DNA of 64,000 nt, taken from the NCBI GenBank assembly GCA_963722255.1, contig CAVRJO010000002.1, positions 256,001 to 320,000 on the forward strand, given 5' to 3'. The position numbers and the translations under genes were made by a program. Under the pieces are notes generated by a model. That model ran no database searches. It worked only from the letters and a program-made list of their open reading frames with translations, and had not been told where the DNA came from. Source of the stretch: Candidatus Babeliales bacterium (GTDB lineage Bacteria > Babelota > Babeliae > Babelales > JANWKD01). This document shows, one piece after another, positions 6,561 to 45,367 of this stretch (positions are counted from its first letter, which is position 1; the number at the start of each line of letters is the position of its first letter).

Positions 6561-6778
6561 CGTAACACTCCTTCTTTTCAAACTTAATTAATTCTTTTGA
6601 GTATTATAAGCAATACCCTTCCAGTCTCAATAGTACCAAAATTAAAATTCAAATATCAATAGTTTTAAAAAATATTTATTTATATAATTCCTTGCAGTAT
6701 TGATACATCACCCTTGCTTTTGGTATCTTAATAATGATCACAGTGATCATTTTGTACCTTAATAAAGGAGTAATTATC

Positions 6779-7279
6779 ATGAAAAGAATACTGTTATTAC
6801 TATTTTTTACCCTTCTATCCTTTACACAAATCTCTTCTAGAGATAGCTTTGCAGGCGGATTTATTGGTGGATTTAGCGGAAGTTTTATTGGTAATGCTAT
6901 AAGCCAACCCCGACAATCACGTAGCGAATGCGTTTATCAGCAACCGGTACAAACACGCGTCGTTGAAGTTCATAAACCAACATACGTTGTACAAGAACCC
7001 CGACAAAACTATAGAAAAAAAGAAAAGAGAAGACGACGCCAACAAGAAGAAGATATATTACGCGAACAAAGATTGCGAGAAATTGCAAACAAGCGACCTG
7101 CACGTGAACGCACTGCATTTACTGAACCCTCTGTTGAACAGCGAATGCAAGAGTTAGCTTGTAAAGAAAAAGAAGTTGAAGCTAAAAAGTTAGAAGCAGA
7201 GCTTGCCAAGGTGCAAGCAGAAAATGCGCAACTCAAACTTAAACTACAACAGAACGAGATGAGAGAATCCAAGAAATAA
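6779..7279 (+). CDS. Hypothetical secreted protein with Gly-zipper-like segment and coiled coil
   Basis: AAGGAG RBS, signal peptide, FAGGFIGGFSGSFIG, basic stretch, C-terminal coiled coil. Confidence 0.75.
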   Translation: MKRILLLLFFTLLSFTQISSRDSFAGGFIGGFSGSFIGNAISQPRQSRSECVYQQPVQTRVVEVHKPTYVVQEPRQNYRKKEKRRRRQQEEDILREQRLREIANKRPARERTAFTEPSVEQRMQELACKEKEVEAKKLEAELAKVQAENAQLKLKLQQNEMRESKK

Positions 7280-7373: not shown

Positions 7374-8840
7374 ATGAAGCAACGTATATCATTCTATTCT
7401 CTTATTCTTCTTCTCGTTATTTTTACCATTGACGCAAAATTTTTTAGTCGACAAGAAGAGCATTGGGATTGGTCAAAAATTCCATTTCTAGACGTTGAAT
7501 TCCCTTCAACTTTTTTATGGGGAACCTCAGAATCAGCTATGCAAGCTGAAGGCGATGTTTCAGCGCTCGGTAAAAGAACTCGAAATTCATGGACTCTCTG
7601 GGAATCGCAAGAAATTGTCATAAATGGCATAAAACAACCTCGCGTTCCCCTTGATAAACGTGTTGGTGATGCATGTCAACGCTGGACACGTTATAAAGAG
7701 GATGTGCAGCTCATTAAAAAACTTGGCATGAATGCACACCGGTTTTCAATTGAATGGAGTAAAATAGAACCCGAAAAAGGCGTTTTTGATACTGATGCAA
7801 TGGATCATTATATCGATTATGCTGAAGAAATGATAAAAAACGGTATTCTACCCATTCCTACACTTTTTCATCACACTATGCCTGCTTGGCTCATAGATGT
7901 TCCAGCACCTCGAATGCCTGGCTTTGAAGATACACAAACTATTCAAGATTTTGTAGCATATGCTTTATTTGTTATACAAGCATTTCAAAAAGCCGGTCTT
8001 CTTGAAAAAATACCTTTCTGGATCACCATTAATGAACCCCTCGCCATTCCACTATCTGGTTACATTTATAATGTATTCCCTCCCGGCAAAAAATTTAAGG
8101 TACGTACTGCAGGAATAGTTGCAAAAAATATGCTTGATGCGCACATTGCAACCTATGATGCTTTTAAGAAAATCGATCCTACCCTTATGGTAGGCTTCAC
8201 GCATATAATGCAACCAATACAGCCCTATCGTCCCTGGAATCCACTTGATCAAATTCCCGCAACAATTTTTGATTATCTTGTAAATGATGTTGCACTCGAA
8301 TATTTCAAAACCGGCTACTTTAACTGGGTTTGGCTTGTAAGGGATTATAATGAAAACGCTATAAATAAGCTTGATTTCATTGGCATTAACTATTATACCC
8401 ACACGCTTATTAGTATGTTTAAAGAGCGTGCACGACCTGACGAAAAACTCTCTGAAGCTTATGGCGGAAAAAAGATCAAGGCTATTTATCCTGAAGGGCT
8501 CTATGATTCATTGCAAAAAGTTGCCACACTGGGAGTTCCTATTATAATTACCGAAAATGGCTTTGCTTATGATAATGTTGAGCTTCGTGATGAGTATATA
8601 AAAAAACATATCTATGTTCTTTATAAAGCAATGCAAGAAGGTATTGATATCCGAGGATATCTCTTTTGGACCTTAACGGATTGTTTTGGCTGGACCAGCG
8701 CGCATCAGAGCACCCATGGTATCTATAAGGTTGATTTTGAAACACAAGAAAGGACATTTAGGCCCAGTGCTCAATATCTTGTTGATGTTATTGCTCATAA
8801 AAGTTCATCCTCAACGTTAACACACCGACTTGGAAGCTAA
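7374..8840 (+). CDS. Glycoside hydrolase family 1 (beta-glycosidase), secreted, copy 1
   Basis: FPSTFLWG, RFSIEWSKIEP, TLFHHT, acid/base TINEP, nucleophile ITENG; signal peptide. Confidence 0.95.
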   Translation: MKQRISFYSLILLLVIFTIDAKFFSRQEEHWDWSKIPFLDVEFPSTFLWGTSESAMQAEGDVSALGKRTRNSWTLWESQEIVINGIKQPRVPLDKRVGDACQRWTRYKEDVQLIKKLGMNAHRFSIEWSKIEPEKGVFDTDAMDHYIDYAEEMIKNGILPIPTLFHHTMPAWLIDVPAPRMPGFEDTQTIQDFVAYALFVIQAFQKAGLLEKIPFWITINEPLAIPLSGYIYNVFPPGKKFKVRTAGIVAKNMLDAHIATYDAFKKIDPTLMVGFTHIMQPIQPYRPWNPLDQIPATIFDYLVNDVALEYFKTGYFNWVWLVRDYNENAINKLDFIGINYYTHTLISMFKERARPDEKLSEAYGGKKIKAIYPEGLYDSLQKVATLGVPIIITENGFAYDNVELRDEYIKKHIYVLYKAMQEGIDIRGYLFWTLTDCFGWTSAHQSTHGIYKVDFETQERTFRPSAQYLVDVIAHKSSSSTLTHRLGS

Positions 8841-9017
8841 AGGTAATAAATAATAGCATAAAATAGGTAAAACCACAGAATTTAAGACCTACGGAAATTA
8901 ATCAGTTTTGCTTCATAAACATTATTTACAAATAGGGCTTTTGCTTCTTTATTACTATTACTATATACTAAAAGGAAAATAGTAGTTTTAATAACCTTAT
9001 ACAGAGGCAACCTTTCT

Positions 9018-10649
9018 ATGAAGAAAATTTTACTTATACTAAGTTCAATCATATGTACCTCCTTACATGCTTTTGGAGTGCATAGTCTTGTAGATCAAAT
9101 AGGTACAACAATAAAAGATCATCCTTACGCAACAGCAGCATTTGTGGGCTCAACAATAGCCCTTGGAAGCCCCTGCTTCTATTTTCGTAACCATACTCTT
9201 GAAGAGCGATGGGATTGGGATTCTATCGATACAAGCAAAGTAAAATTTCCTCAAAATTTTGTGTGGGGTACCGCAGATTCAGCCTTCCAAACCGAGGGAA
9301 TTGAAACAGCCAACAATAAAACTATACAAAACACCTGGACAGCTTGGGAAGAAAAGCTTGTTTCTGAAAAATACTCACTCTTTACCCCGACTGGGGTCCT
9401 TAAAAAATTAGGAATACTTAATGTTGAAAAACAGCCACGAACCCCGGTAGAAGACCGAGCAGGGTACGCCTGTCATCGCTGGACTCACTATAAAGAAGAT
9501 GTCAAATTACTCAAAAAAATTGGCGTAAAAATTCACCGCTACTCTATTGAATGGGCTAAAATTGAGCCTGAAGAAGGTATTTATGATCCTGATGCACTTC
9601 AGCATTATATAGACTTCACTTGGGAATTAATCAACAATGGCATTATACCCTGCCCTAACCTTTTCCATCATACCTTGCCGTTATGGTATGCAACCAAGGG
9701 AGGATTTGAAAAGTCTGAAAATATCGAAAAGTTTGTTGAATACGCCGTCTTTATTTTCACAGCATTCCAAAAAGACGGATTACTTGAAAAAACAAAAATA
9801 TGGTTTGCCTTTAATGAAGCCATTGGGGTTGCTTTAGCTGGTTATGTTGATGGCAAAATACCTCCTGGAAAAAAAATGCAACTAATACTAGCTGGTACTG
9901 TTGCCAAGAATATGCTTGATGCTCATATCAGGATTTATGATGAATTTAATAAAATTGATAATTCAATCAAACTTGGCTTCATTCACGTTATGATGCCCAT
10001 AACAGCCTACAACCCGCACAACCCAGTTCATCAACTCTTTGCACAAACCTTTAATCATCTTGTTAATGATGTTGCTCTTGAGTATTTCAAATCAGGGACA
10101 TTCAACTGGCTCAATCTTGTTAAAGATAACAATCCAAATGCTCTTAACAAGATAGATTTCATTGGTGTAAACTATTATTCTCACTTACTTCTCTCATTAA
10201 CGGGCCCAGCAATCAGGCCTGATGAAGTGTGTGCTGATGGATATCCTGGAGCAAAACGAACAAAACCAATATATGCTGAAGGATTATATCAAACTTTAAA
10301 ACATGCTGCTTCATACGGATTCCCGCTGGTTATTACAGAAATTGGTTTTGCAGCAAAGCTTGAAAGCGTTGATCTAAGAACTGAATATTTCAAAAAACAT
10401 TTTTATGCAATGCACAAGGCAATGCAAGAAGGTGTTGATTTGAGAGGTTGTTTCATTTGGACTGCTTTTGATTGCTTCGGATGGAATTCAGGACAACATA
10501 GTACTCATGGTATTTATGCAGTAGATCATAAAACGCAGGAAAGAACATTAAAGAAAAATGCTTGGTATATTGTTGAAATGTTTAATAAGCCGTTTTCAGA
10601 AAAACAAATTGAGCCTCTTGAAGCTATAAAGAAACAAACTACCATTTAG
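9018..10649 (+). CDS. Glycoside hydrolase family 1, secreted, copy 2
   Basis: FPQNFVWG, RYSIEWAKIEP, AFNEA, ITEIG; signal peptide plus a second hydrophobic segment. Confidence 0.95.
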   Translation: MKKILLILSSIICTSLHAFGVHSLVDQIGTTIKDHPYATAAFVGSTIALGSPCFYFRNHTLEERWDWDSIDTSKVKFPQNFVWGTADSAFQTEGIETANNKTIQNTWTAWEEKLVSEKYSLFTPTGVLKKLGILNVEKQPRTPVEDRAGYACHRWTHYKEDVKLLKKIGVKIHRYSIEWAKIEPEEGIYDPDALQHYIDFTWELINNGIIPCPNLFHHTLPLWYATKGGFEKSENIEKFVEYAVFIFTAFQKDGLLEKTKIWFAFNEAIGVALAGYVDGKIPPGKKMQLILAGTVAKNMLDAHIRIYDEFNKIDNSIKLGFIHVMMPITAYNPHNPVHQLFAQTFNHLVNDVALEYFKSGTFNWLNLVKDNNPNALNKIDFIGVNYYSHLLLSLTGPAIRPDEVCADGYPGAKRTKPIYAEGLYQTLKHAASYGFPLVITEIGFAAKLESVDLRTEYFKKHFYAMHKAMQEGVDLRGCFIWTAFDCFGWNSGQHSTHGIYAVDHKTQERTLKKNAWYIVEMFNKPFSEKQIEPLEAIKKQTTI

Positions 10650-10662
10650 AAATAGGATATTT

Positions 10663-12327
10663 ATGAAAATTATGAAACTAGTAGTAGCGCTTATTGCGCT
10701 CATTCCCTTATACACAGAGCCAATGCAAAGCGAAAAGCTTATTTCCTTTGCAAAAATTTTACCATCGCAAGCAAAACAGCTTGCCTGCATGTATCCTAAA
10801 ACAACTGCTGCCCTCTTGGCAACCACCGCTTTAGGTACTACCTGGTATTATGCAAATGGCTACGAAAGGCGTGAAGATTGGGACAATCAAGAATTGGATA
10901 TGACTAAATTCCCTAAGGAAACCACTTGGGGAACCGCCAACTCAGACCTTCAATTATGTGGTGTTCAAACAGTAAAGGGCAAAAAGGTAAAAAATAGTTG
11001 GACAAAATGGCAAAAAGAATTGATTACACCAAAAGACAATCGTCCTTGGTGGCAGAAATTTTTCTATGAAAATCCAAACAGTACAAAAGTTCCTCGTATC
11101 CCTAAAAAACAAAGGATGGGAACCGCAACAGGCCACTGGGATAACTATCAAGAAGATTTTAAATTGTTAAAAGAAGCGGGAATTGAAACATTTCGAACAT
11201 CAATTGAATGGAGCAAAATTCAACCAGATTCTCATAATGAGTATGATACTAAGGCAATGAAATATTATAATGACTATCATAAAGTATCAACTGAAGCATT
11301 TAAAGAAGTTACCATCAATGGATTCCATCATGCTTGGCCCGATTGGTTTGATGAGCTCGGCGCTTTTGAAAAAAAGGAAAATATTAAATATTATGTCGAC
11401 TATTATCTTTGGATGGTTGATCAATTGGCTCAAGAAGGCAATCTTAACGAAATTAAGCGATTTTTAACCTTCAATGAACCTGCAGGTTATGTACTCGCTG
11501 CGTATGTTTATGGCAAATATCCTCCTGGCGAAAAAATGCAGCTCAAAAAAGCTGGAATTGTCTTAAAAAACATGCTTGATGCCCACGTTGAAATTTATCA
11601 TAAACTTAAAGAAAAATATCAAGAACTACAGATAAGCATTGCTCATATGATGCAGCCATTACAACCTTACAATCCTTGGAATCCTCTCGATGTATTAACA
11701 GCGAAGCTATTTAATCATTTATTAAATAATGTCACCTTAGAATATCTTTCTACCGGTAAATTTAAATGGTTATGGTACATAAATGAAACAAATGAGAAAG
11801 CTAAAGGAACTTTAGATTTTGTAGGTGTTAATTATTACACCCATACACTCCTAAACTGGTTTAAGCCAAAAGTTCGCCCTACTGAGATTAGTTCTGATGC
11901 TTATGAAGGTGAAGAAGGAAAAGCACTCTATGCAGAGGGTTTCTATGATTCCCTTAAAACGGTTCATCGTTACTTTCCAGACAAGCCTATCATGATTACA
12001 GAATTAGGTTTTGCCTCAGAGAATAATGAAAAACGAACTGAAGCTTTCAAAAGATTTTTCCTTGTTCTACAAAGAGCAATACATAAAGATAACATGAAAA
12101 TTCTTGGCGTTGAAATCTGGGAATCATTTGCCGGTTATGGCTGGAACCAAGGGAATGGTGGCAAACATGCTCTTTTTGATGTCGATTATACTCAAGAAGA
12201 TAAACCACGAAAACTCAAACCAAGTTCCGAGGGTGTTTTAAATCTAATTGCTCAACATAAAAATTCTCGTAATGATCAACAGCAAAAAGAAACTGATACC
12301 TCAATAAACCTGGAAATAAAAACATGA
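10663..12327 (+). CDS. Glycoside hydrolase family 1, secreted, copy 3
   Basis: RTSIEWSKIQP, TFNEP, ITELG; signal peptide plus a second hydrophobic segment. Confidence 0.93.
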   Translation: MKIMKLVVALIALIPLYTEPMQSEKLISFAKILPSQAKQLACMYPKTTAALLATTALGTTWYYANGYERREDWDNQELDMTKFPKETTWGTANSDLQLCGVQTVKGKKVKNSWTKWQKELITPKDNRPWWQKFFYENPNSTKVPRIPKKQRMGTATGHWDNYQEDFKLLKEAGIETFRTSIEWSKIQPDSHNEYDTKAMKYYNDYHKVSTEAFKEVTINGFHHAWPDWFDELGAFEKKENIKYYVDYYLWMVDQLAQEGNLNEIKRFLTFNEPAGYVLAAYVYGKYPPGEKMQLKKAGIVLKNMLDAHVEIYHKLKEKYQELQISIAHMMQPLQPYNPWNPLDVLTAKLFNHLLNNVTLEYLSTGKFKWLWYINETNEKAKGTLDFVGVNYYTHTLLNWFKPKVRPTEISSDAYEGEEGKALYAEGFYDSLKTVHRYFPDKPIMITELGFASENNEKRTEAFKRFFLVLQRAIHKDNMKILGVEIWESFAGYGWNQGNGGKHALFDVDYTQEDKPRKLKPSSEGVLNLIAQHKNSRNDQQQKETDTSINLEIKT

Positions 12328-12878
12328 AAATAATCAATACAAATTATTTCACTTCGTTGCTTGGCTTATTATTTGGCATAAGCCTTCTAATGCCAATATC
12401 AGCATTTGAACGCAAAGCAGGCTATTGGAATGGTCCTTCTGATGAAAACAACACCAGCTTTTTTGGTACATTAACTAACCCTAAAAGCCAACGGGAAGAT
12501 TGGTATAAGGTTACTCCCTATATTGCCGAATTTTGGTGTACCATTTCAAACATTGGATTTATAGCTGCCGGGATCCACTGCAAATCTCCTGAACTTTTAT
12601 TTGCAGGAGCTGCTTCGATTGTAAGTCATAGTATTCCTAAACAATGGCTTCTCTATGTTGATAAAATCGGTGTACTCATTGTTCTTTCCAAAGTTATTAG
12701 AGAACATAAGACGTTGACCAATAATCCTTGGCTTCTAATTCCAGTGGGTATTGCTGGCGCCATCAATGTAACAGATGCATATCTTGCACGAAATAAAGGG
12801 TTAACATGGCCTCATGTGGTTTGGCATTTATCTTCGGCATTATTAGCCTATGATTTTTTACGACGCACACAACAATAA
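12324..12878 (+). CDS. Alkaline ceramidase-like membrane hydrolase (CREST superfamily)
   Basis: E..YKVTPYIAEFWCTISN resembles the eukaryotic ACER N-terminal motif. SxxxH, D and HxxWH catalytic/Zn motifs are present. ATGA overlap with GH1 copy 3. Confidence 0.82.
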   Translation: MKIINTNYFTSLLGLLFGISLLMPISAFERKAGYWNGPSDENNTSFFGTLTNPKSQREDWYKVTPYIAEFWCTISNIGFIAAGIHCKSPELLFAGAASIVSHSIPKQWLLYVDKIGVLIVLSKVIREHKTLTNNPWLLIPVGIAGAINVTDAYLARNKGLTWPHVVWHLSSALLAYDFLRRTQQ

Positions 12879-12936
12879 TTTACGTGAATTCGACGTAAGC
12901 AAAAACTAAAAAAAGAATATTATTCAATAACGGAAA

Positions 12937-13053
12937 TGTCACCCAGAGGGCCTTCATGCAATGAAGCCCGTGGGGTCCAGCTATAAAAAAAGGTCAAAAT
13001 AATAAATCTATAAACTGGATTCCACGGATTTCGATGAAATCCTCTGAATGACA
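12937..13053. repeat. Palindromic REP/RPE-like element, family A copy 1
   Basis: TGTCACCCAGAGG...CCTCTGAATGACA termini with internal hairpins; homologous to 62201-62318 in the opposite orientation. Confidence 0.8.
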
Positions 13054-13282
13054 ATTGTCAATGTATAAAAAGCTTCCGGTAGCTACACGTGGTCCCGAAA
13101 ACTTAATGCTGTAAGCATTAATGTTGAAGTGGGCCATATTGGAGCGGGAGAGCAATCCAACAGCATGTTGGTGTCCTTGTAGTTAAGGTATATTGGACAC
13201 ACAATATACCTTTAATAAAAAAATTTTAGACAAGTAAAATACTGTTAAATAAAATTCTTTTTTTGTAGTTAAGGAAAGATCT

Positions 13283-16415: not shown

Positions 16416-19400
16416 ATGCACAACAGATCAAAACTCATACTTATTCCTTTATTTCCTCTTTTCTTTCAACTCTTTGCTATGGAAAAAGAGCTCGGAAATG
16501 ACTTCTATTTAAGTCAACTGGAAAAACAGGTACAACCTGCCCTGGGTCACAGATTATATGTACCAGGATTTAACAGCTCTATAAAAGAATCAAAAGATAA
16601 AAAAAAGCAAGAAGATCAGTCTCAACTTGATCCTTTTAAAAGCCAACCATTCAAGCATTTAAAATATCAAAACAAAGCAGTAGGCAAAGTTACAAAATTT
16701 TCTGATAATTTCAGCGAAGGAGTTTCATCACATGATCAACCAATGTCTTTGGATTCTTTTATTAGCGGACTAGCCAATGTAAGTGCAAATATTATCATTA
16801 CCAGAGCAGTGGGTCCTTATGCAAGTGCGGCGATTAGCGCATGCTCAGAAGCCAAATATCTCAGAGAGAAATTTGATGAATTAAATACTGAAATCAGTAA
16901 TAACGCAATAACTGATAATTGGTGCACAATGAATCTTGGATGTACATACCAAGAATCAATTGAAGCTCTTAGAGTCGTTCTTAGTGCAGCAGAAAAACTC
17001 GATCAACAAAAAAGAAAAGTTATTGAAACACATAAAGCAAAGCTCAGGCAATTTGCTGATTTTGTTCTCGAAGGTTATAAATCTGCTCAAGAAAATTATC
17101 CGGAGCTATTTAAAACAAAAGTAAAAAAAGACAATAGTTTGAGAATTTCTAACATCCCCGAATTTGATCTTGAAAAATCTCACCAAGAATATTGGGCGCA
17201 GCATCAACGAGACATACAACAATTTGAAAAAGAATCAAAAGTTCGCATTGCTACATCTAAAAGCAAAAAACCAGCAAATTCAAAATCACAAAAAACTAGC
17301 GCAAAAAAAGATAGTAATAGCAAAAATGCAGCAGCAACTGACACACCTCAAATGCTCACTCCTGAAATGCTTGAAGAACATGCTAAAATTTTTGCTGAAC
17401 AAATAAAAAAACTAGACGCGTTGTCCAAATATAATGAATTCAAATCAGAAATGGAATATCAAGAAACAATGGGCAACATTGCGGGTGGGTTCAATGGCAT
17501 AGCGGCCATTGCAGGTATTTTTGGTCACAAAAAAGAAGCGTACGCGATTAGAACTTTTGGTGCTGCAGGAATTCAAGCTGTTGATAGTATGCGAACTATT
17601 ATGCAAAAAGGTCTGGCTGGCGCCGGAATTCATCCTTATGTTGGCATACTTATGGCAGTTGAAGGGTTATGTGAGTTAATGTTTCAAGAAGAAGATGATT
17701 CTCAAGCAAAAAATACAGAAGCAATCATTAATGCCATAACACAAGGCATTATGCATTTATCACAACAAATGTACCAAATGCGTGAAGAAATGCGCGAACA
17801 GTTTGAAGAAGTTCGCAAAAGGGACACCAAGCATCATTTTATTGTACTTGAAAAATTCTTTGCGCTTCATTTAGATCAAAAAAATATCTTGCACAACTTA
17901 CAAGATCTGCATAACTATATAGCTCACAACCACAAAGCAATTCAAAGTGGCCTTGAAGCATTGCATGCACGAGTTGATAGTAATTTTAGAATGACTCTTG
18001 ATAACTTAAATGGTTTGCGCGTAGAAGATATTGATGATGATATTCAAGAAGCATTATTGTTACCCGATGATGCTTCACCTGAAGAATTTGGTAAATGCAT
18101 ACAAAATCTCTTTATCAAAGGAACAAGTCGCGCTTCGGCCGATTCATTAACGGGCGGTTCGATTGATATACATTCGCCAACGGCACTCCAAACAACACTG
18201 GAAGGCCCTATAGTTCAACAAAATATTTTTGGGCATCCTGCTTTTCCAAATGTTAATCTTTTAAGCAGATATCTTGAAGGAAATTTTAACAATTTTAAAC
18301 ATGAAAAGTTAGTTAATCCTTTAATTTGGATTAAATGCGTCGATACGATTGTGCCTATGCTTAGTCAAAAACTTGCGCGTGATAAAGAATATCCTCCAAC
18401 AAAAAACATGAAAGATTCAGATATCGAAAAATTACTGCTTCTCAAAAAACAAGGGAAAAAAATACGCGCGTTTATTAACAGAGTTTACGAGAATAACTAT
18501 TTAGAGAAAATTGCTCAAAAATATTACAAGGCTTTATCGCAACTTTCTGCAGCAGTTCAGCAGGAGCAAGAAAACTTTGAAAAAAAAGGTAAGAAACTAC
18601 TTCGTAGAGAACTAAGCGCTACTATAGAAGCTGAAAAATCAAAAACAAATGGAATAGTAAATTCGTATGAATGTAAAAAATGCGTTGAATATATAACCAA
18701 TGCATTAAAAAACGCAAAGACAGCAAACGCTTATACCGTACAAGTACAAGGAGCGGGATACTCCTGTCCAACTTATTTGAAAGGACAATCAAAACGAATT
18801 GATTATAAAGAATCAAAATTGATAACAGTAGAAGATGTTCATCAACCCTCTGAAAATTTTAAACGGATCTATGAAGAATACCTAGATGAAAGACAAGCAA
18901 AGAACGAATCGTTACTCAAAGCAACAAAAGTTGACCTTGAGCAAAGTTCTTTCAAACCTATTGGAGATGGTATGAGCACTCTGATCTATCCAGCTGGACA
19001 AAATAGTGATTTGCCTAAACTTATGCGACCTCGCCAGCCATTACCTATAAACCCATTATATATTATAGCAGAAAATAAAGGCCTAGGAATTATTACACAT
19101 ACCTATCATCTTACAGATGAACGTTTCCACCTTGAATCTTTTTTTTGCTTTAAAACAGATGATCCTAAAATAAAAATTTTACATTTATCTTTAGAGCATG
19201 ATTTTCAAAAAGAGATGTATACGCTCAATGAAAATATAAACCACTTCTGGGAAGGAGGACGTTTTCCAAAGTCTATTGATACTTTTACAACTAACGGAGT
19301 ATATCCTAGTAGTGCTTTTACAGTACGGTTTGATGGTGCTCTTGGCCTTATATCTTCAGGGTATTTTCCGCCTGATTGCCCATATCCAGCAGCACGAGAT

Positions 19401-21305
19401 ACTTTTGTCAGTAAAGCGCGCAACGAAAGCGATCAAGCCGACCAGTTTTTGCCTTTCTTTCAACAATTAATACAAGAAGATGAACCGTGCATTCATTTGG
19501 GACCCACCACCCACAAAAGATCTAATCAATCACAAGATTTTTTGCCCTTAGTTCAACAGTTGATACAAGAAGATCAACAAGAAAAAAGATTGCAGTTTAA
19601 CCAAGAAATAATGACGCAGGTAAGTTCAAAATCACCAACTTCGGATATTTTTAAAGCAGCACAACAAGTCGATGTTAGTTTTAAAATTTTGGATAGCTTG
19701 TTAACGCTTATGTATCATGATTTTATGAACGAAGGTCAACGCAAAAAGCATCCAGAGCTTGCAACAATTACAGGCAATGATGATAAATATTGCATTAAAA
19801 ATAATGCTGCATTAACACGATATTTACAAAATTATTCTTCAAAGCATGATTCAGAACATAAACAAGGTGACTATCTTCCCTACCACTTAAAATATAATAC
19901 ATTCTATAAACTGAGAAGAGCACTTGGTACTATTACTAAAACACACTTTCAACCCCAGTTTAAGGCTGTAACACAAGTGATTGATAACATTAATATGCTT
20001 GTTGCTAATTATACAAAGAGAAAAATTACGCCAGGAACAATAGCAATAGCCCCCAAAAAAATTCATGAAGACTCTCAGTTATTGGCAATTGTAATCCAGC
20101 AAATTAAAGAAAAAGATAAAAAAATTGATCAACTCATACAAAGCAACGAAGAGCTCGAACAAAGTAATAAAAAGCTCGCAACAGAAACAAAAGGACTTAA
20201 ACAAGAAGTCGCAGGATTGAATGAACAGATGCAGAAGATGATGGCATTGTTAATAGCTATGAACAATGGAAAACAAACAACCGACAATCTTTCTAATGTT
20301 TATCTTGCTCAAAAACCTTCTGTTGTTGATAGAAAATCTTCACCTTCGCGATACATTATTAAATCCTATATAACTCATGTAAAAAGAGTTAAACAGCAAG
20401 TAGCAGCGGAATGCGGTTATCATGCACTTTTCAATGCATTAGGATGTTTTACAAGCGATATTTTATTTGAACAGTTTATGCAAGAAAATAAGCAACACAT
20501 TAAAGACTCCCGTCATTCTGCTGATGATCAATGGTTAAGCGAAGATGAGGTTGCCGCTTTAGTACAAAAAAACAAAACAGAAACAATGAACATCACGGTG
20601 ATTCCTGATATTACACGCTATAAAGATGGTAAAAGTGGACTTGAACATTCTGTCTTGGTTGCTTTTGCTCAATCGCAAGCTGCTCTAGGAAACAGACCGG
20701 AATTGTATAAACATGTTTTTATACTGCGCACGGGAAAAACAGACGAAACAAGAACTCACTGGGTTGCTGTTGAACAAACGATAAAAAAGGATAGTACTAC
20801 AGAGTATGCGATTATGAATTCACTACCCGGTCATGCTTATAAAGAATATGTAACTATGCTTCAAGATATCTTACATAACCGCGACAACCAATATGCCATT
20901 TCAGTATTCGATCCAATGGTTGAAGAAACACTATCATATGCAATTTCTCAGTTACACTTAAGTACGATTTTTAAAGCACGATCATATGCCCGCACGGGCG
21001 AATCAAAGGCTTCTGATTATCGAATTGTTGATAAAAATCATGAAAAGATTGTTGATGATATTCTTCAAGCTGCACAACAACTGCTTGATATAACAGAAGG
21101 TTTAAGCTTTTGGTCAACTTGTGGACATATTGAACCAAACATATCAGTTCTAGATGCACTTAGCCATATAGTGGATTGTGATGGTGAAGCTCTTACTTAT
21201 AAAAATAGTATTGATGATAAAGAAGAACATAAAACTGTTTTACACATAACAAATGAGCAAAACCGACATATCGAAAATCTTATAAGTTCATTAGAGAATC
21301 TTTAA
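16416..21305 (+). CDS. Large secreted multidomain protein with a C-terminal Josephin-like cysteine protease domain
   Basis: Signal peptide, hydrophobic Gly/Ala-rich segment, coiled coils, KQQ..ECGYHALFNAL...HWVAV...MNSL. Confidence 0.75.
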   Translation: MHNRSKLILIPLFPLFFQLFAMEKELGNDFYLSQLEKQVQPALGHRLYVPGFNSSIKESKDKKKQEDQSQLDPFKSQPFKHLKYQNKAVGKVTKFSDNFSEGVSSHDQPMSLDSFISGLANVSANIIITRAVGPYASAAISACSEAKYLREKFDELNTEISNNAITDNWCTMNLGCTYQESIEALRVVLSAAEKLDQQKRKVIETHKAKLRQFADFVLEGYKSAQENYPELFKTKVKKDNSLRISNIPEFDLEKSHQEYWAQHQRDIQQFEKESKVRIATSKSKKPANSKSQKTSAKKDSNSKNAAATDTPQMLTPEMLEEHAKIFAEQIKKLDALSKYNEFKSEMEYQETMGNIAGGFNGIAAIAGIFGHKKEAYAIRTFGAAGIQAVDSMRTIMQKGLAGAGIHPYVGILMAVEGLCELMFQEEDDSQAKNTEAIINAITQGIMHLSQQMYQMREEMREQFEEVRKRDTKHHFIVLEKFFALHLDQKNILHNLQDLHNYIAHNHKAIQSGLEALHARVDSNFRMTLDNLNGLRVEDIDDDIQEALLLPDDASPEEFGKCIQNLFIKGTSRASADSLTGGSIDIHSPTALQTTLEGPIVQQNIFGHPAFPNVNLLSRYLEGNFNNFKHEKLVNPLIWIKCVDTIVPMLSQKLARDKEYPPTKNMKDSDIEKLLLLKKQGKKIRAFINRVYENNYLEKIAQKYYKALSQLSAAVQQEQENFEKKGKKLLRRELSATIEAEKSKTNGIVNSYECKKCVEYITNALKNAKTANAYTVQVQGAGYSCPTYLKGQSKRIDYKESKLITVEDVHQPSENFKRIYEEYLDERQAKNESLLKATKVDLEQSSFKPIGDGMSTLIYPAGQNSDLPKLMRPRQPLPINPLYIIAENKGLGIITHTYHLTDERFHLESFFCFKTDDPKIKILHLSLEHDFQKEMYTLNENINHFWEGGRFPKSIDTFTTNGVYPSSAFTVRFDGALGLISSGYFPPDCPYPAARDTFVSKARNESDQADQFLPFFQQLIQEDEPCIHLGPTTHKRSNQSQDFLPLVQQLIQEDQQEKRLQFNQEIMTQVSSKSPTSDIFKAAQQVDVSFKILDSLLTLMYHDFMNEGQRKKHPELATITGNDDKYCIKNNAALTRYLQNYSSKHDSEHKQGDYLPYHLKYNTFYKLRRALGTITKTHFQPQFKAVTQVIDNINMLVANYTKRKITPGTIAIAPKKIHEDSQLLAIVIQQIKEKDKKIDQLIQSNEELEQSNKKLATETKGLKQEVAGLNEQMQKMMALLIAMNNGKQTTDNLSNVYLAQKPSVVDRKSSPSRYIIKSYITHVKRVKQQVAAECGYHALFNALGCFTSDILFEQFMQENKQHIKDSRHSADDQWLSEDEVAALVQKNKTETMNITVIPDITRYKDGKSGLEHSVLVAFAQSQAALGNRPELYKHVFILRTGKTDETRTHWVAVEQTIKKDSTTEYAIMNSLPGHAYKEYVTMLQDILHNRDNQYAISVFDPMVEETLSYAISQLHLSTIFKARSYARTGESKASDYRIVDKNHEKIVDDILQAAQQLLDITEGLSFWSTCGHIEPNISVLDALSHIVDCDGEALTYKNSIDDKEEHKTVLHITNEQNRHIENLISSLENL

Positions 21306-39213: not shown

Positions 39214-40137
39214 GAGCCTGTCTGAAAACTCAAGGCAGTTGAAAAAATAAATAAAAAAAAATAAAATCCCTCTTGTTGTTACTACACAAACAAAGAAGGA
39301 TTTTTTCATATGAAGCATTTAAATTACGAAGAAATTATACCATCAAAATATGTCATATCTAAAGAACTTTTACAAGAATTTCATAATTTTATTGCAGTCT
39401 ATATGCCACCAAGTAAAATAGGTCGACCACGTTCAGATAATGATCCATTAATAGCAGGAATATATTATTTACTCAAGACAGGATGTCAGTGGGATGCGCT
39501 GCCCAAATGCTTTGGTCCAGCAAAAACCGTTTATCACAGATTTAGAGAACTAGTTAAAGCAAATGCTTTTCAAAAAATTTGGAAATCAATTTTAATGCAC
39601 TATGATCGAACAAAAGGACTTCGTCTTGAAAATCAATCTATAGATTCATGCCATAAAAAAGCGCCTCTTGGAGGAGACAAAACGGGAATTAGCCCTGTTG
39701 ATAGAAGAAAATTGGGCTCCAAATTAAATCTTGTTGTTGAAGAATTGGGACTTCCTCTTAGCGCTACCGTTGCGGGTGGAAATCGACATGACACGCAATT
39801 ATTTGTTCCTCTTATTGATAATTTACAGTATCAAATCCCACAATCAAGAAATCATTATCTTCGCACTGACAAGGGCTTCGTATCTAAAAAAAATAAGGAA
39901 GAAGCTATTAAACGAAACTTTACGCCGGTAATGCCATTAAAAAAACCCAAAAATAAACCTCGAGTTACAACAAATAAAGATCCAATACGGTGGGTTGTTG
40001 AAAGAACATTTTCTTGGATGAATCGATTCAGACGCGTTTTCATTCGTTATGACAAGCTATCTAAAAACTTTCTTGGGCTAGTTCAATTTGCTTGTCTAGT
40101 CATCGTTTTCAGAAAAATTTAGTTTTCAGACAGGCTC
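39214..40137 (+). mobile_element. IS5-family insertion sequence (924 bp)
   Basis: Perfect 17-bp terminal inverted repeats GAGCCTGTCTGAAAACT; TAA target duplication at 39211-39213 and 40138-40140. Confidence 0.96.
39310..40122 (+). CDS. IS5-family transposase
   Basis: GRPR..GIYY.LKTGCQW..LP, IDS, DKGF, RWVVERTFSW. Confidence 0.95.
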   Translation: MKHLNYEEIIPSKYVISKELLQEFHNFIAVYMPPSKIGRPRSDNDPLIAGIYYLLKTGCQWDALPKCFGPAKTVYHRFRELVKANAFQKIWKSILMHYDRTKGLRLENQSIDSCHKKAPLGGDKTGISPVDRRKLGSKLNLVVEELGLPLSATVAGGNRHDTQLFVPLIDNLQYQIPQSRNHYLRTDKGFVSKKNKEEAIKRNFTPVMPLKKPKNKPRVTTNKDPIRWVVERTFSWMNRFRRVFIRYDKLSKNFLGLVQFACLVIVFRKI

Positions 40138-43536: not shown

Positions 43537-44500
43537 TAGCGACCCTCGTTAAGCCGCGCACATTTCACTCAATGCATAAACAGCTGCTTCATAAAAATCT
43601 TTAATATTTTCAGCAGCTTTTCTGATTGCATTTTTGACAGCCGTCCAATGATGCTCAATTGGGTTAAAATCAGGTGAATATGGGGGTAAAAATATAACTC
43701 TGCACGAAGCGGCTTCGATAAGCTGAATTATTTTTTTAGATTTATGGAAGCTAGCATTGTCAATTATAAGTACCATTCCAGGTTCTAACGCAGGAGCCAA
43801 AACCTGTTCTACGTAAGTTTCATAAACAGCAGAATTTGAATATCCTTCAAACAAAAATGGCGCAAACAACAAATTTAAATTCAGTGCTGCCGTGATATTA
43901 TAACGTGCTTTACGTTCAGCTTTTTTTTGCGCATGGCAACGTTCTCCGCGTGGTGCCCATCCAGTAAGAACGACCTCATTATCGTCAATTCCAGTTTCAT
44001 CAGAGTAAATGATTTTTGCTGGATCGATGTCTTTAATTTCTTCTAAAAAATCGGCACGTTTTTTTGCATTTGCTTCGGCGTAGCTAAAAGTTTTTTTTTA
44101 GATGTAAAACCAATCTTTTTAAGCATCCGTAGCATCACGTCTTCAGAGACCTTCACGCCTGTAAGTTGCTCCCATCTAATAACCATTTGTGGGGATGTAC
44201 ATTGCTTATTAGAATTTGCAAATGCTTTGAATTTTTCCAAGTCTGTAATTTTGTGGCTATGGCCTTTTTGATAACCTGTTTTTGGTTTGAGCTCGCCAGT
44301 TTTTTTTCGTAATTCTAACCATTCATAAATTACCCTTCTGCTGACATCAAATATTTTAGCGGCCTCGTCTATATGCATGCCACCATCAACTGCCCCTATT
44401 ACTCGTTCTCTTAAATCAAGACTGAATGCCATTCGCTTCTCCTTTTTAAAATTTTAAGGATAGTATAGCACATTTGTGCGGAAATTAAAGCGGGGCGCTA
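43537..44500 (-). mobile_element. IS630-family insertion sequence
   Basis: Ends TAGCGACCCTCGTTAA / TTAAAGCGGGGCGCTA flanked by a duplicated TA (43535-43536, 44501-44502). Confidence 0.92.
43549..44432 (-). CDS. IS630 transposase, -1 frameshift at the A9 run (~44091-44099)
   Basis: SLDLRERV HTH; the -1 frame reads KKTFSYAEA..YSDETGID..DNASFH..LPPYSPDFNPIEHHW. Confidence 0.92.
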
Positions 44501-44510
44501 TAGAACCCTA

Positions 44511-45367
44511 GGTTCTGTGAACCAAATTTAAAAAATGCTTAAAAAAAGATAAGCTTCCTTTGTTAATCAACTAAAAAAACAAAAGGAAGCTTGTAATGCA
44601 TTACCTAATTAATGATACAGATTTTGAAAAAATATTGAATGTTTTAATGAGCATCAAAGGGATTCACAAGAAGTCTATTGAAAAATTACGTAAATTTATA
44701 GAGGCAATATATTACATATGCAGAAGCGGTTGCCAATGGAGATTATTGCCAATTTATTATGGTAGTTGGCGAGCTGTTCACAAGCGATTTAAGCAGTGGA
44801 ATAAACGTAATATTTGGAAAAAACTATTTGAAAGTTTTCAAGAAGATCCTGATATGGAATGGGCAATGATAGACTCTACAGTTATTAGAGCACATGCATG
44901 TGCAGCTGGATATGGTAAAGATACTCAAGAACAAGAGGCGTTAGGACGTAGCAAGGGCGGCTTCTCAACAAAAATACACGCTTTGGTTGATGCATTGGGA
45001 AATCCACTAAAATTTGTTTTAACACCCGGTCAACGACATGACATTACTCAAGCAAAAAATCTGAGCACTGGTATTGTAGATGCTTCTATCATTGGAGATA
45101 CTGCTTATGATGCTGATCATTTCATTGAAAGCATAAAAGATCAACGATGTAAGCCAGAAATTCCTCCTCGTAGAAATCGTAAGCAGCCTCGTGACTATGA
45201 TGTTCATCTTTACAAAGAGCGACATTCCATCGAATGTTTTTTCGGAAAAATTAAACATTTTCGTAGGATTTTTTCGCGATTCGATAAATCTTCTCAATCT
45301 TATTTATCTTTTTTATATTTTGTAGGGACCTTAATTTGGCTTAGGTAAAATTTGGTTCACAGAACAC
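44511..45367 (+). mobile_element. IS5-family insertion sequence
   Basis: Terminal inverted repeats GTTCTGTGAACCAAATTT / AAATTTGGTTCACAGAAC; CTAG on both sides (44508-44511, 45367-45370), so the duplication is TA or CTAG. Confidence 0.93.
44596..45348 (+). CDS. IS5-family transposase
   Basis: RSGCQWRLLP, IDSTVIRAH, LGRSKGGFSTKIH, GDTAYDA, YKERHSIECFF. Confidence 0.96.
   Translation: MHYLINDTDFEKILNVLMSIKGIHKKSIEKLRKFIEAIYYICRSGCQWRLLPIYYGSWRAVHKRFKQWNKRNIWKKLFESFQEDPDMEWAMIDSTVIRAHACAAGYGKDTQEQEALGRSKGGFSTKIHALVDALGNPLKFVLTPGQRHDITQAKNLSTGIVDASIIGDTAYDADHFIESIKDQRCKPEIPPRRNRKQPRDYDVHLYKERHSIECFFGKIKHFRRIFSRFDKSSQSYLSFLYFVGTLIWLR

Follow-up and report, generated by a model that had tools for sequence, protein, structure and literature searches.

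Exported GH1 glycosidases beside a compact ACER3 homologue in a Babeliales genome: candidate enzymes for stripping host lipids

When genes for sugar-removing and acyl-removing enzymes lie side by side in the genome of a parasite, do they form one pathway against host glycolipids, or are they separate acquisitions that came to be neighbours? This question is raised by a 64,000-nt stretch of the genome of a Babeliales bacterium (the window), in which three genes for glycosidases of family GH1 (GH1a, GH1b and GH1c) are followed by a fourth, here called mini-ACER, that carries alkaline-ceramidase motifs (Table 1). Babeliales (TM6/Dependentiae) are obligate parasites of protists. The source genome (G000) comprises 1.62 Mb in two contigs, has a GC content of 34% and is 93% complete. 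The named homologues of the window GH1s are Babeliales proteins, and one of these GH1s has an identical counterpart in another genome of the same order.

An earlier interpretation of this DNA (the sequence-only reading) proposed a two-step exported pathway for glycosylceramide. We prefer a different account, on whose correctness we are evenly divided: the locus would hold two host-lipid-stripping enzyme types of separate inheritance that a recent insertion brought together, and not one evolved pathway. The activities and substrates suggested below are read from the fold, catalytic residues and lineage of the GH1s, and from the homology, conserved residues and missing segment of mini-ACER.

Table 1. 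Features of the GH1/mini-ACER locus and of a comparable GH20 locus
Feature	Position	Strand	Description
GH1a	7374..8840	+	488 aa, predicted exported GH1 glycosidase; E221 acid/base, E394 nucleophile; G439 at the glycone Glu site
GH1b	9018..10649	+	543 aa, predicted exported GH1; second hydrophobic patch at residues 40-54; NEA and ITEIG; G488 at the glycone Glu site
GH1c	10663..12327	+	554 aa, most divergent paralog; NEP and ITELG; G493 at the glycone Glu site
mini-ACER	12324..12878	+	184 aa; signal-peptide-like N-terminus and five-helix CREST core; E69, S98, H102, D113, H164, W167, H168
Dispersed repeat, intergenic	12884..13262	.	Partly palindromic, two-part; directly 3' of mini-ACER, before the convergent rplS region
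181-aa open reading frame	6734..7279	+	No Pfam family; directly 5' of the GH1 array in the window, L034 and G001
Tandem GH20 pair	L044 1639-8480; L140 6613-13452		Directly 5' of mini-ACER in a Chlamydiae-group lineage

The GH1 array and its sugar pocket

All three glycosidases match the Pfam GH1 profile (E=1e-69 for GH1a, 6e-59 for GH1b and 8e-45 for GH1c) and combine the GH1 TIM barrel with both catalytic motifs, the acid/base in NEP220, NEA266 and NEP271 and the nucleophile in ITENG392, ITEIG439 and ITELG445, respectively; the predicted model of GH1a (pLDDT 94) is a GH1 barrel. Three co-oriented GH1 genes with both catalytic glutamates were thus correctly recognised in the sequence-only reading, as was the ATGA overlap of GH1c with the fourth gene, which the coordinates bear out; the two gaps further upstream measure 177 nt (GH1a to GH1b) and 13 nt (GH1b to GH1c). 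Its remark that no sugar transporter or regulator lies nearby also agrees with a Pfam scan of six flanking open reading frames (ORFs), among which neither was found. The paralogs share 39-51% pairwise identity and are the only GH1s found in G000. Across the phylum, GH1 was found in 134 of 261 genomes, often in several copies, and in a FastTree phylogeny of 163 of 167 relatives (four fragments dropped, midpoint root) the three window paralogs share a clade (support 0.998) with the tandem arrays found in their family. The trio would have arisen by tandem expansion, specific to the family, from an exported GH1 that half of the Babeliota genomes carry.

Export was called with a crude rule based on hydropathy and basic residues, not with SignalP. 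The signal peptides originally reported are supported in so far as all four proteins pass, but so do 516 of the 1165 ORFs of at least 150 aa in G000, and export is therefore ordinary in this genome; signal peptides have likewise been reported on 44% of one isolate's proteins (PMC6561590). With 125 of the 167 GH1 relatives passing as well, a secreted GH1 is the rule in this family; the sequence-only reading had noted that bacterial GH1s are usually cytoplasmic.

As to descent, the closest lineage is that of BGPh of Pyrococcus horikoshii (1vff), the best natural single-domain match of the family in the PDB, and the window GH1s appear to derive from it. A basal-type relative scores 317 bits with BGPh and at most 248 with other natural single-domain beta-glucosidases; the family profile gives 369 bits with BGPh and at most 326 with other natural single-domain enzymes, and a window paralog itself 183 bits with BGPh against 180 with the next such enzyme. 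The TLHHFT motif and the D-N-[FY]-E-W loop are common to BGPh/BGTl and basal-type family members. The window paralogs differ from BGPh in their predicted export, in HH[TA] for HFT, in Gly for the glycone Glu and in His for the aromatic residue that follows. Two results pull against this placement: 8in1, a two-domain beta-glucosidase, and an ancestral GH1 obtained by reconstruction score at least as high as 1vff, and a structure search with GH1a ranks BGPh seventh among near-ties. BGPh is membrane-bound and prefers long alkyl glucosides, and its relative BGTl is a steryl glucosidase (PMC4687101); a lipid aglycone is plausible because of this ancestry. Descending from such a membrane-associated alkyl/steryl-glucosidase lineage, the GH1s would most likely strip sugar head groups from lipid glycosides, acting by the two-glutamate, retaining mechanism.

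This lineage lends some substance to the proposal of glycosylceramide cleavage, in that the nearest enzyme acts on lipophilic glycosides. The GH1 glucocerebrosidases (GBA3/KLrP, LPH and rice Os3BGlu6), while sharing the GH1 fold and both catalytic glutamates, are not the nearest relatives (193 bits for GBA3 against 317 for BGPh). The sugar pocket sets them further apart. The glycone Glu (E451 of Os3BGlu6 and Sfbgly) is reported to bind OH4 and OH6 and to exclude 6-phospho sugars, and is kept in the GH1 glucocerebrosidases (PMC5991390, PMC3605045, PMC8571087); in all three window paralogs it is Gly, a replacement that the sequence-only reading had missed. Glu is kept in 57 of the 167 relatives and is mostly Gly, Ser, Cys or Asn in the rest, and its loss pairs with a change from Phe to His at position 167 (101 sequences with His and no Glu, 44 with Phe and Glu). 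The pocket for C4 and C6 of the sugar would thereby have been remodelled through Glu to Gly and coupled changes. With the glycone Glu lost, plain glucosylceramide or galactosylceramide is not an obvious substrate, and since the C4/C6 pocket is remodelled, the sugar is probably C6-modified or otherwise not plain glucose.

A remodelled pocket of this kind also bears on the alternative that the two enzyme types have unrelated functions, the GH1s acting on sugars that are soluble or substituted at C6 (6-phospho-, 6-sulfo- or uronic glycosides, or cellobiose) and mini-ACER on N-acylethanolamine, a phospholipid or a glycosylphosphatidylinositol ester. Loss of the phosphomimetic Glu is described as a hallmark of 6-phospho-glycosidases (PMC3605045), and 35 of the 167 relatives have Ser at this site; however, the window paralogs show no evident Lys and Tyr phosphate ligands. 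The small residue (Gly) of that signature is present, but the loops STHG, STHG and GKHA offer no clear Lys-x-Tyr, and NCBIfam scores fall far below the cut-offs; the BGL family of that database gives 234 bits against a cut-off of 478. A beta-glucosidase found in all seven TM6 genomes studied by Yeoh et al., very likely of the same gene family, was read as a cellobiase feeding glycolysis (PMC4776705), although no match to a ROK kinase or glucokinase for using free glucose was found in G000 (hexokinase, PfkB and phosphotransferase-system families were not searched for). Together with the fit of mini-ACER to ACER3 described below, this makes the reading of unrelated functions rather unlikely. The available text of Yeoh et al. 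does not describe export, tandem expansion, BGPh ancestry or an altered pocket, and no lipid-glycoside activity of Babeliota GH1s was found in the literature, with subscription journals mostly outside its coverage.

Two kinds of unusual family member were also seen. At L016 (from 1480) and L063 (from 6184), GH1 copies lacking the catalytic acid/base and nucleophile (WAPE, TQNG) stand beside intact paralogs and could be non-catalytic glycolipid binders, and four BGPh-type GH1s (P0355, P0357, P0359 and P0362) are fused to a thioredoxin/redoxin domain according to precomputed Pfam assignments.

A compact relative of ACER3

Taken singly, mini-ACER matches the Pfam Ceramidase family (PF05875) at 21.8 bits, below the gathering score of 32.5, over residues 58-85, and the ACER3 sequence at E=0.033; profile searches thus support the ceramidase assignment of the fourth gene only weakly when run on the one protein, where they uphold GH1 outright. 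The family gives a stronger signal. A near-length search recovered 97 relatives; at E<=0.001, a profile search gave 211 clusters (150 among the matches listed). When 55 divergent members, picked by hand, are made into a profile, ACER3 is matched at E=1.1e-12, whereas the next CREST protein (SIDT) has an E-value of at least 0.16 and PAQR is not matched. PF05875 is itself matched at E<=0.01 by 32 of the 55 members, at best with 2.5e-12. Seven residues, E69, S98, H102, D113, H164, W167 and H168, are the same in all 55 aligned sequences, even where identity falls to 20%. They align to E33, S77, H81, D92, H217, W220 and H221 of ACER3 (PDB 6g7o, 6yxh), reported to comprise Zn ligands, catalytic residues, a substrate contact and a Ca ligand (PMC6303388, PMC9436119). 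The CREST motifs SxxxH (S98/H102), Asp (D113) and HxxxH (H164/H168) do not vary in either of two alignments (58 of 58 and 55 of 55 sequences), and the full set is present in 206 of 243 family matches. On these residues and profile matches, the fourth gene is a true ACER3 homologue, an ACER-clade CREST hydrolase with an intact catalytic set.

Its form is shortened. The predicted model (pLDDT 91) has five core helices, not the seven of CREST proteins; H102 and H164 lie 62 residues apart against 136 in ACER3 (family median 61, from 206 of 243 sequences), and about 75 residues, roughly two helices, are absent relative to ACER3. From this spacing, and from a published statement that the fourth and fifth transmembrane helices (TM4-TM5) vary, we infer that these are the missing segment. 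The first-helix motif YIAEFWxTxSN is common to ACER3 and mini-ACER, but the Ca2+ motif DWCE(X)N is lost, with D19, C21 (the disulfide cysteine) and N24 of ACER3 aligning to S55, R57 and W60 while AEF is kept, and the signal-peptide-like N-terminus is a further difference from ACER3. Foldseek returns ACER3 as the top match of the model (E=0.012), and the top four rows of the VIA comparison hold ACER3 (Z 12.2, root-mean-square deviation 2.7, 144 residues aligned), myomaker (9.1) and SIDT2 (8.9, 7.8). It is the sequence profile match that carries weight, because Z below 13 is weak for helical bundles. The alkaline-ceramidase motifs noted earlier therefore reflect real homology, seen in the family profile and the fold, in a protein that falls under the Pfam cut-off on its own and whose shortening had gone unnoticed; the accompanying label "eukaryote-type" holds in the sense of ACER-clade membership only, the family tree having been built without eukaryotic ACERs.

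Could so short a protein be a non-catalytic or degenerate membrane protein, like myomaker? The roughly 75 residues missing between the motifs together with the Ca2+ site, the only modestly hydrophobic helices and a frameshifted second copy in G000 would agree with this, but seven invariant residues and the motif set kept in most family matches make it highly improbable. Codon-position differences from the homologue at L034, a locus of a close relative, number 24/8/63 over 156 codons, a pattern indicating that the gene is under purifying selection relative to L034. A homodimer prediction with Zn scored 0.00, a value that speaks neither for nor against a dimer. Mini-ACER would most likely bind Zn through H102, H164 and H168, activate water with D113 and S98, and cleave ceramide or another lipid with an N-acyl amide bond, free of Ca2+ control and at a site open to the bilayer. 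Other substrates, as supposed under unrelated functions, have a precedent in the phospholipases A2 and D among CREST enzymes (PMC13562381); the family profile, however, fits ACER3 (E=1e-12) far better than SIDT, and W167 corresponds to the ceramide-contacting W220. The best pointer to a fatty-amide substrate is P0184: one sequence on one short contig, it fuses a mini-ACER-homologous domain to an acid-ceramidase (Ntn hydrolase) domain (E=3e-17). Two unrelated ceramidase folds are joined there in one chain.

Other fusions and neighbours are more varied. Among the ten longer homologues surveyed, five carry alpha/beta-hydrolase domains, at either end, by Pfam; P0099 looks similar by eye, its N-terminal domain having no match in Pfam or PDB. 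P0239 and P0240 are fused to a DSP phosphatase, P0189 shows no second family, and none of the ten is fused to GH1. A scan of 62 neighbouring proteins found a DSP phosphatase (L029) and serine hydrolases (L031, L035) among many unrelated genes, and no neighbour family recurs beyond redundant loci and generic families. The DSP/PTP phosphatase, fused in P0239 and P0240 and directly 5' at L029 (7391-7981), occurs in separate lineages and could be a lipid phosphatase. At L114 (6420-8218), in a genome with no GH1 match (G058), two GT32-type DXD glycosyltransferases (PF04488) on the opposite strand converge on mini-ACER.

The gene is patchily distributed, with copies found in 10 of 261 genomes of the phylum and, in the Chlamydiae group, five strong matches among 400 genomes scored (one further genome was unscored; six weak matches there, E 2e-6 to 9e-4, and another in G253 were not counted); one member with a named source comes from Legionella waltersii. 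The compact ACER family spans Babeliota, Chlamydiae, Legionella and, probably, giant viruses. The viral leads are all weak: atlas clusters at 0.86-0.87, fold matches with E of at least 0.027, and the neighbours at L052 and L054. Because scans of viral contigs (with P0218 and alignment A2) and of annotated phages gave no confirmed relative, the giant-virus link depends on these leads. At L052 and L054, divergent homologues have SNARE-domain and Ras-family genes as neighbours and the contigs are gene-dense, a setting suggestive of giant viruses.

A quick tree covers 79 of 80 rows (the cutting rule skipped one, and two divergent loci were not included); in it, Babeliota and Chlamydiae copies interleave, mostly with weak support, and the window copy groups with L034 and P0002 (support 99). 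The second copy in G000 (G000:C2:90936-91413; L003, L004) is frameshifted into two pieces, lies far from any GH1, is 51-65% identical to the window copy and resembles another subclade; it is probably a separate acquisition.

The hypothetical CREST groups 1 and 2 (PMC3146951) are likewise bacterial, ACER-related and of predicted function. They are described, in contrast, as having seven helices and occurring mainly in Proteobacteria and plants, and the available text describes no Legionella or viral members and reports no such domain fusions. No short ACER family in these bacteria was found in the literature, again with subscription journals mostly uncovered, and the member lists of the CREST paper could bear on novelty. 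What is solidly new is the compact family of ACER-like proteins and the exported GH1 clade with its remodelled pocket.

Linkage of the two enzyme types

Linkage was assessed at 33 other mini-ACER loci, 22 of them with at least 1.5 kb of upstream sequence and at least two redundant pairs among them. GH1 is present at just one, L034. Among the ten genomes of the phylum with mini-ACER, the two adjoin only in the window genome; eight of the nine others have GH1 (G058 gave no match), at 26 kb (G033), at 43 kb (G196), further away or on different contigs. Co-occurrence in eight of nine genomes compares with 7.1 expected from family rates (P=0.39). In the Chlamydiae group, three of four mini-ACER genomes have no GH1 match and the fourth has GH1 on another contig. 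The sequence-only reading had staked its pathway on a GH1-ceramidase linkage conserved in relatives; this is not what the loci show, and because the two enzyme types seldom adjoin in other genomes, a joint pathway is unproven.

The surroundings of the gene suggest how it arrived. G001, which belongs to the same genus and is 99% complete, shares these flanks and also has three GH1s, but its slot is filled by an O-methyltransferase, an MFS transporter and a GntR regulator, and mini-ACER finds no match there; nor does it in any of the four other genomes of the organism's family. The repeat that adjoins the gene has 19 further blastn matches, at about 16 further places in the genome, and marks a variable slot ahead of the convergent rplS region. 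On these three grounds the slot is variable and the insertion recent. Mini-ACER would have come as a single mobile gene, inserted behind the array in an ancestor that this organism shares with its close relatives; the ATGA overlap probably places it on the GH1c transcript, and mini-ACER would not need GH1.

Several observations weigh against separate inheritance. A naive Fisher test of genome co-occurrence is nominally significant (p=0.036). The linkage has been kept since the split from L034 (82-83% protein identity), which has the same gene order and a 4-nt gap at the last junction, and probably in a further relative too, as P0002 and P0322 come from contigs of equal length. Finally, at L044 and in the near-identical G507, mini-ACER lies 83 nt behind two tandem GH20 genes on the same strand, the only GH20s found in G507. 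By rough estimate, one GH20 case among about 25 independent loci is not far beyond chance.

These same facts can be arranged into a selected two-step exported pathway, in which the GH1s deglycosylate host glycosphingolipids, perhaps with modified sugars, and mini-ACER then deacylates the ceramide, the operon being young yet functional and the GH20 locus convergent. Since ACER3 cannot take glucosylceramide (PMC6303388), deglycosylation must precede, and GH1 glucocerebrosidases do exist (PMC8571087). The ATGA overlap, the gene order kept at L034, the GH20 pair abutting mini-ACER and the acid-ceramidase fusion P0184 all favour such a pathway. The case is nevertheless doubtful: the genes are unlinked in the nine other phylum genomes and at 32 of the 33 loci, none of the ten longer homologues surveyed is fused to GH1, the other neighbours are unrelated, the GH20s are chitobiase-like (1qba, E=6e-73, against human HexA, E=2e-19), and the Glu of Os3BGlu6-type and GBA3 enzymes is Gly here. 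What endures of the original two-step proposal is the ceramidase homologue, the acid-ceramidase fusion of a related domain in P0184, the GH1 lineage and a genome in which an acyl ligase and an acyltransferase, but no fatty-acid synthase, were found; the linkage and the glycone Glu speak against it.

Elsewhere in the window, positions 16416-21305 encode a 1629-aa protein that has a signal peptide and reaches the cut-off of no Pfam family, a candidate large exported host-interaction protein, and putative transposase-like ORFs were recognised by sequence at 54-491, 39310-40122 and 44043-45348. Rfam gave no match within the window, and scans for promoters and terminators did not rise above the chance level (30 found where 25 were expected, and 8 where 5.4 were). 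Reads of one DNA sequencing run fell on three short pieces, and none bridged the genes.

Lipid supply and wider meaning

Family scans of the 93% complete G000 found no ketoacyl synthase, i.e., no fatty-acid synthase, and no match to the diacylglycerol/sphingosine-kinase or pyridoxal-phosphate decarboxylase/sphingosine-1-phosphate-lyase families, with one match each to an AMP-binding (acyl-activating) ligase, a PlsC-type acyltransferase and enolase. This profile, as far as gene content can tell, fits a need for lipid products more than for sugar. A fatty acid freed by mini-ACER could feed the ligase and acyltransferase, to which it would be useful because no fatty-acid synthase was found. The Pseudomonas ceramidase PA0845 has a neutral-ceramidase fold, unrelated to CREST. 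Together with Legionella sphingosine-1-phosphate lyase it resembles the present locus as a bacterial enzyme attacking host sphingolipids, and no CREST-type ceramidase is among those described in the available text of that source (PMC6712060).

A wider scenario, which we offer tentatively and hold to be possible at most, is that protist-infecting bacteria and giant viruses share a five-helix, Ca-independent true ceramidase, the smallest CREST enzyme, recruited repeatedly behind exported glycosidases (GH1, GH20) and fused to other lipid hydrolases. With the remodelled GH1s it would form a host-glycolipid stripping route supplying fatty acids to bacteria unable to make them. How TM6 bacteria without fatty-acid synthesis acquire lipids is left unexplained in the available text of PMC4776705, and the locus supplies two small sets of assayable candidates for lipid acquisition in Babeliota. 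The value of mini-ACER and of the GH1 clade is independent of the operon being a pathway. The helices that do not vary between ACER3 and the adiponectin receptors are all retained in mini-ACER, and the TM4-TM5 pair, which does vary, appears to be gone; the protein would therefore be a natural minimal model of CREST catalysis. The GH1 clade, in which both catalytic glutamates are kept but the sugar pocket is rebuilt, may have a new specificity, and the locus calls into question the cellobiase reading of Babeliota GH1.

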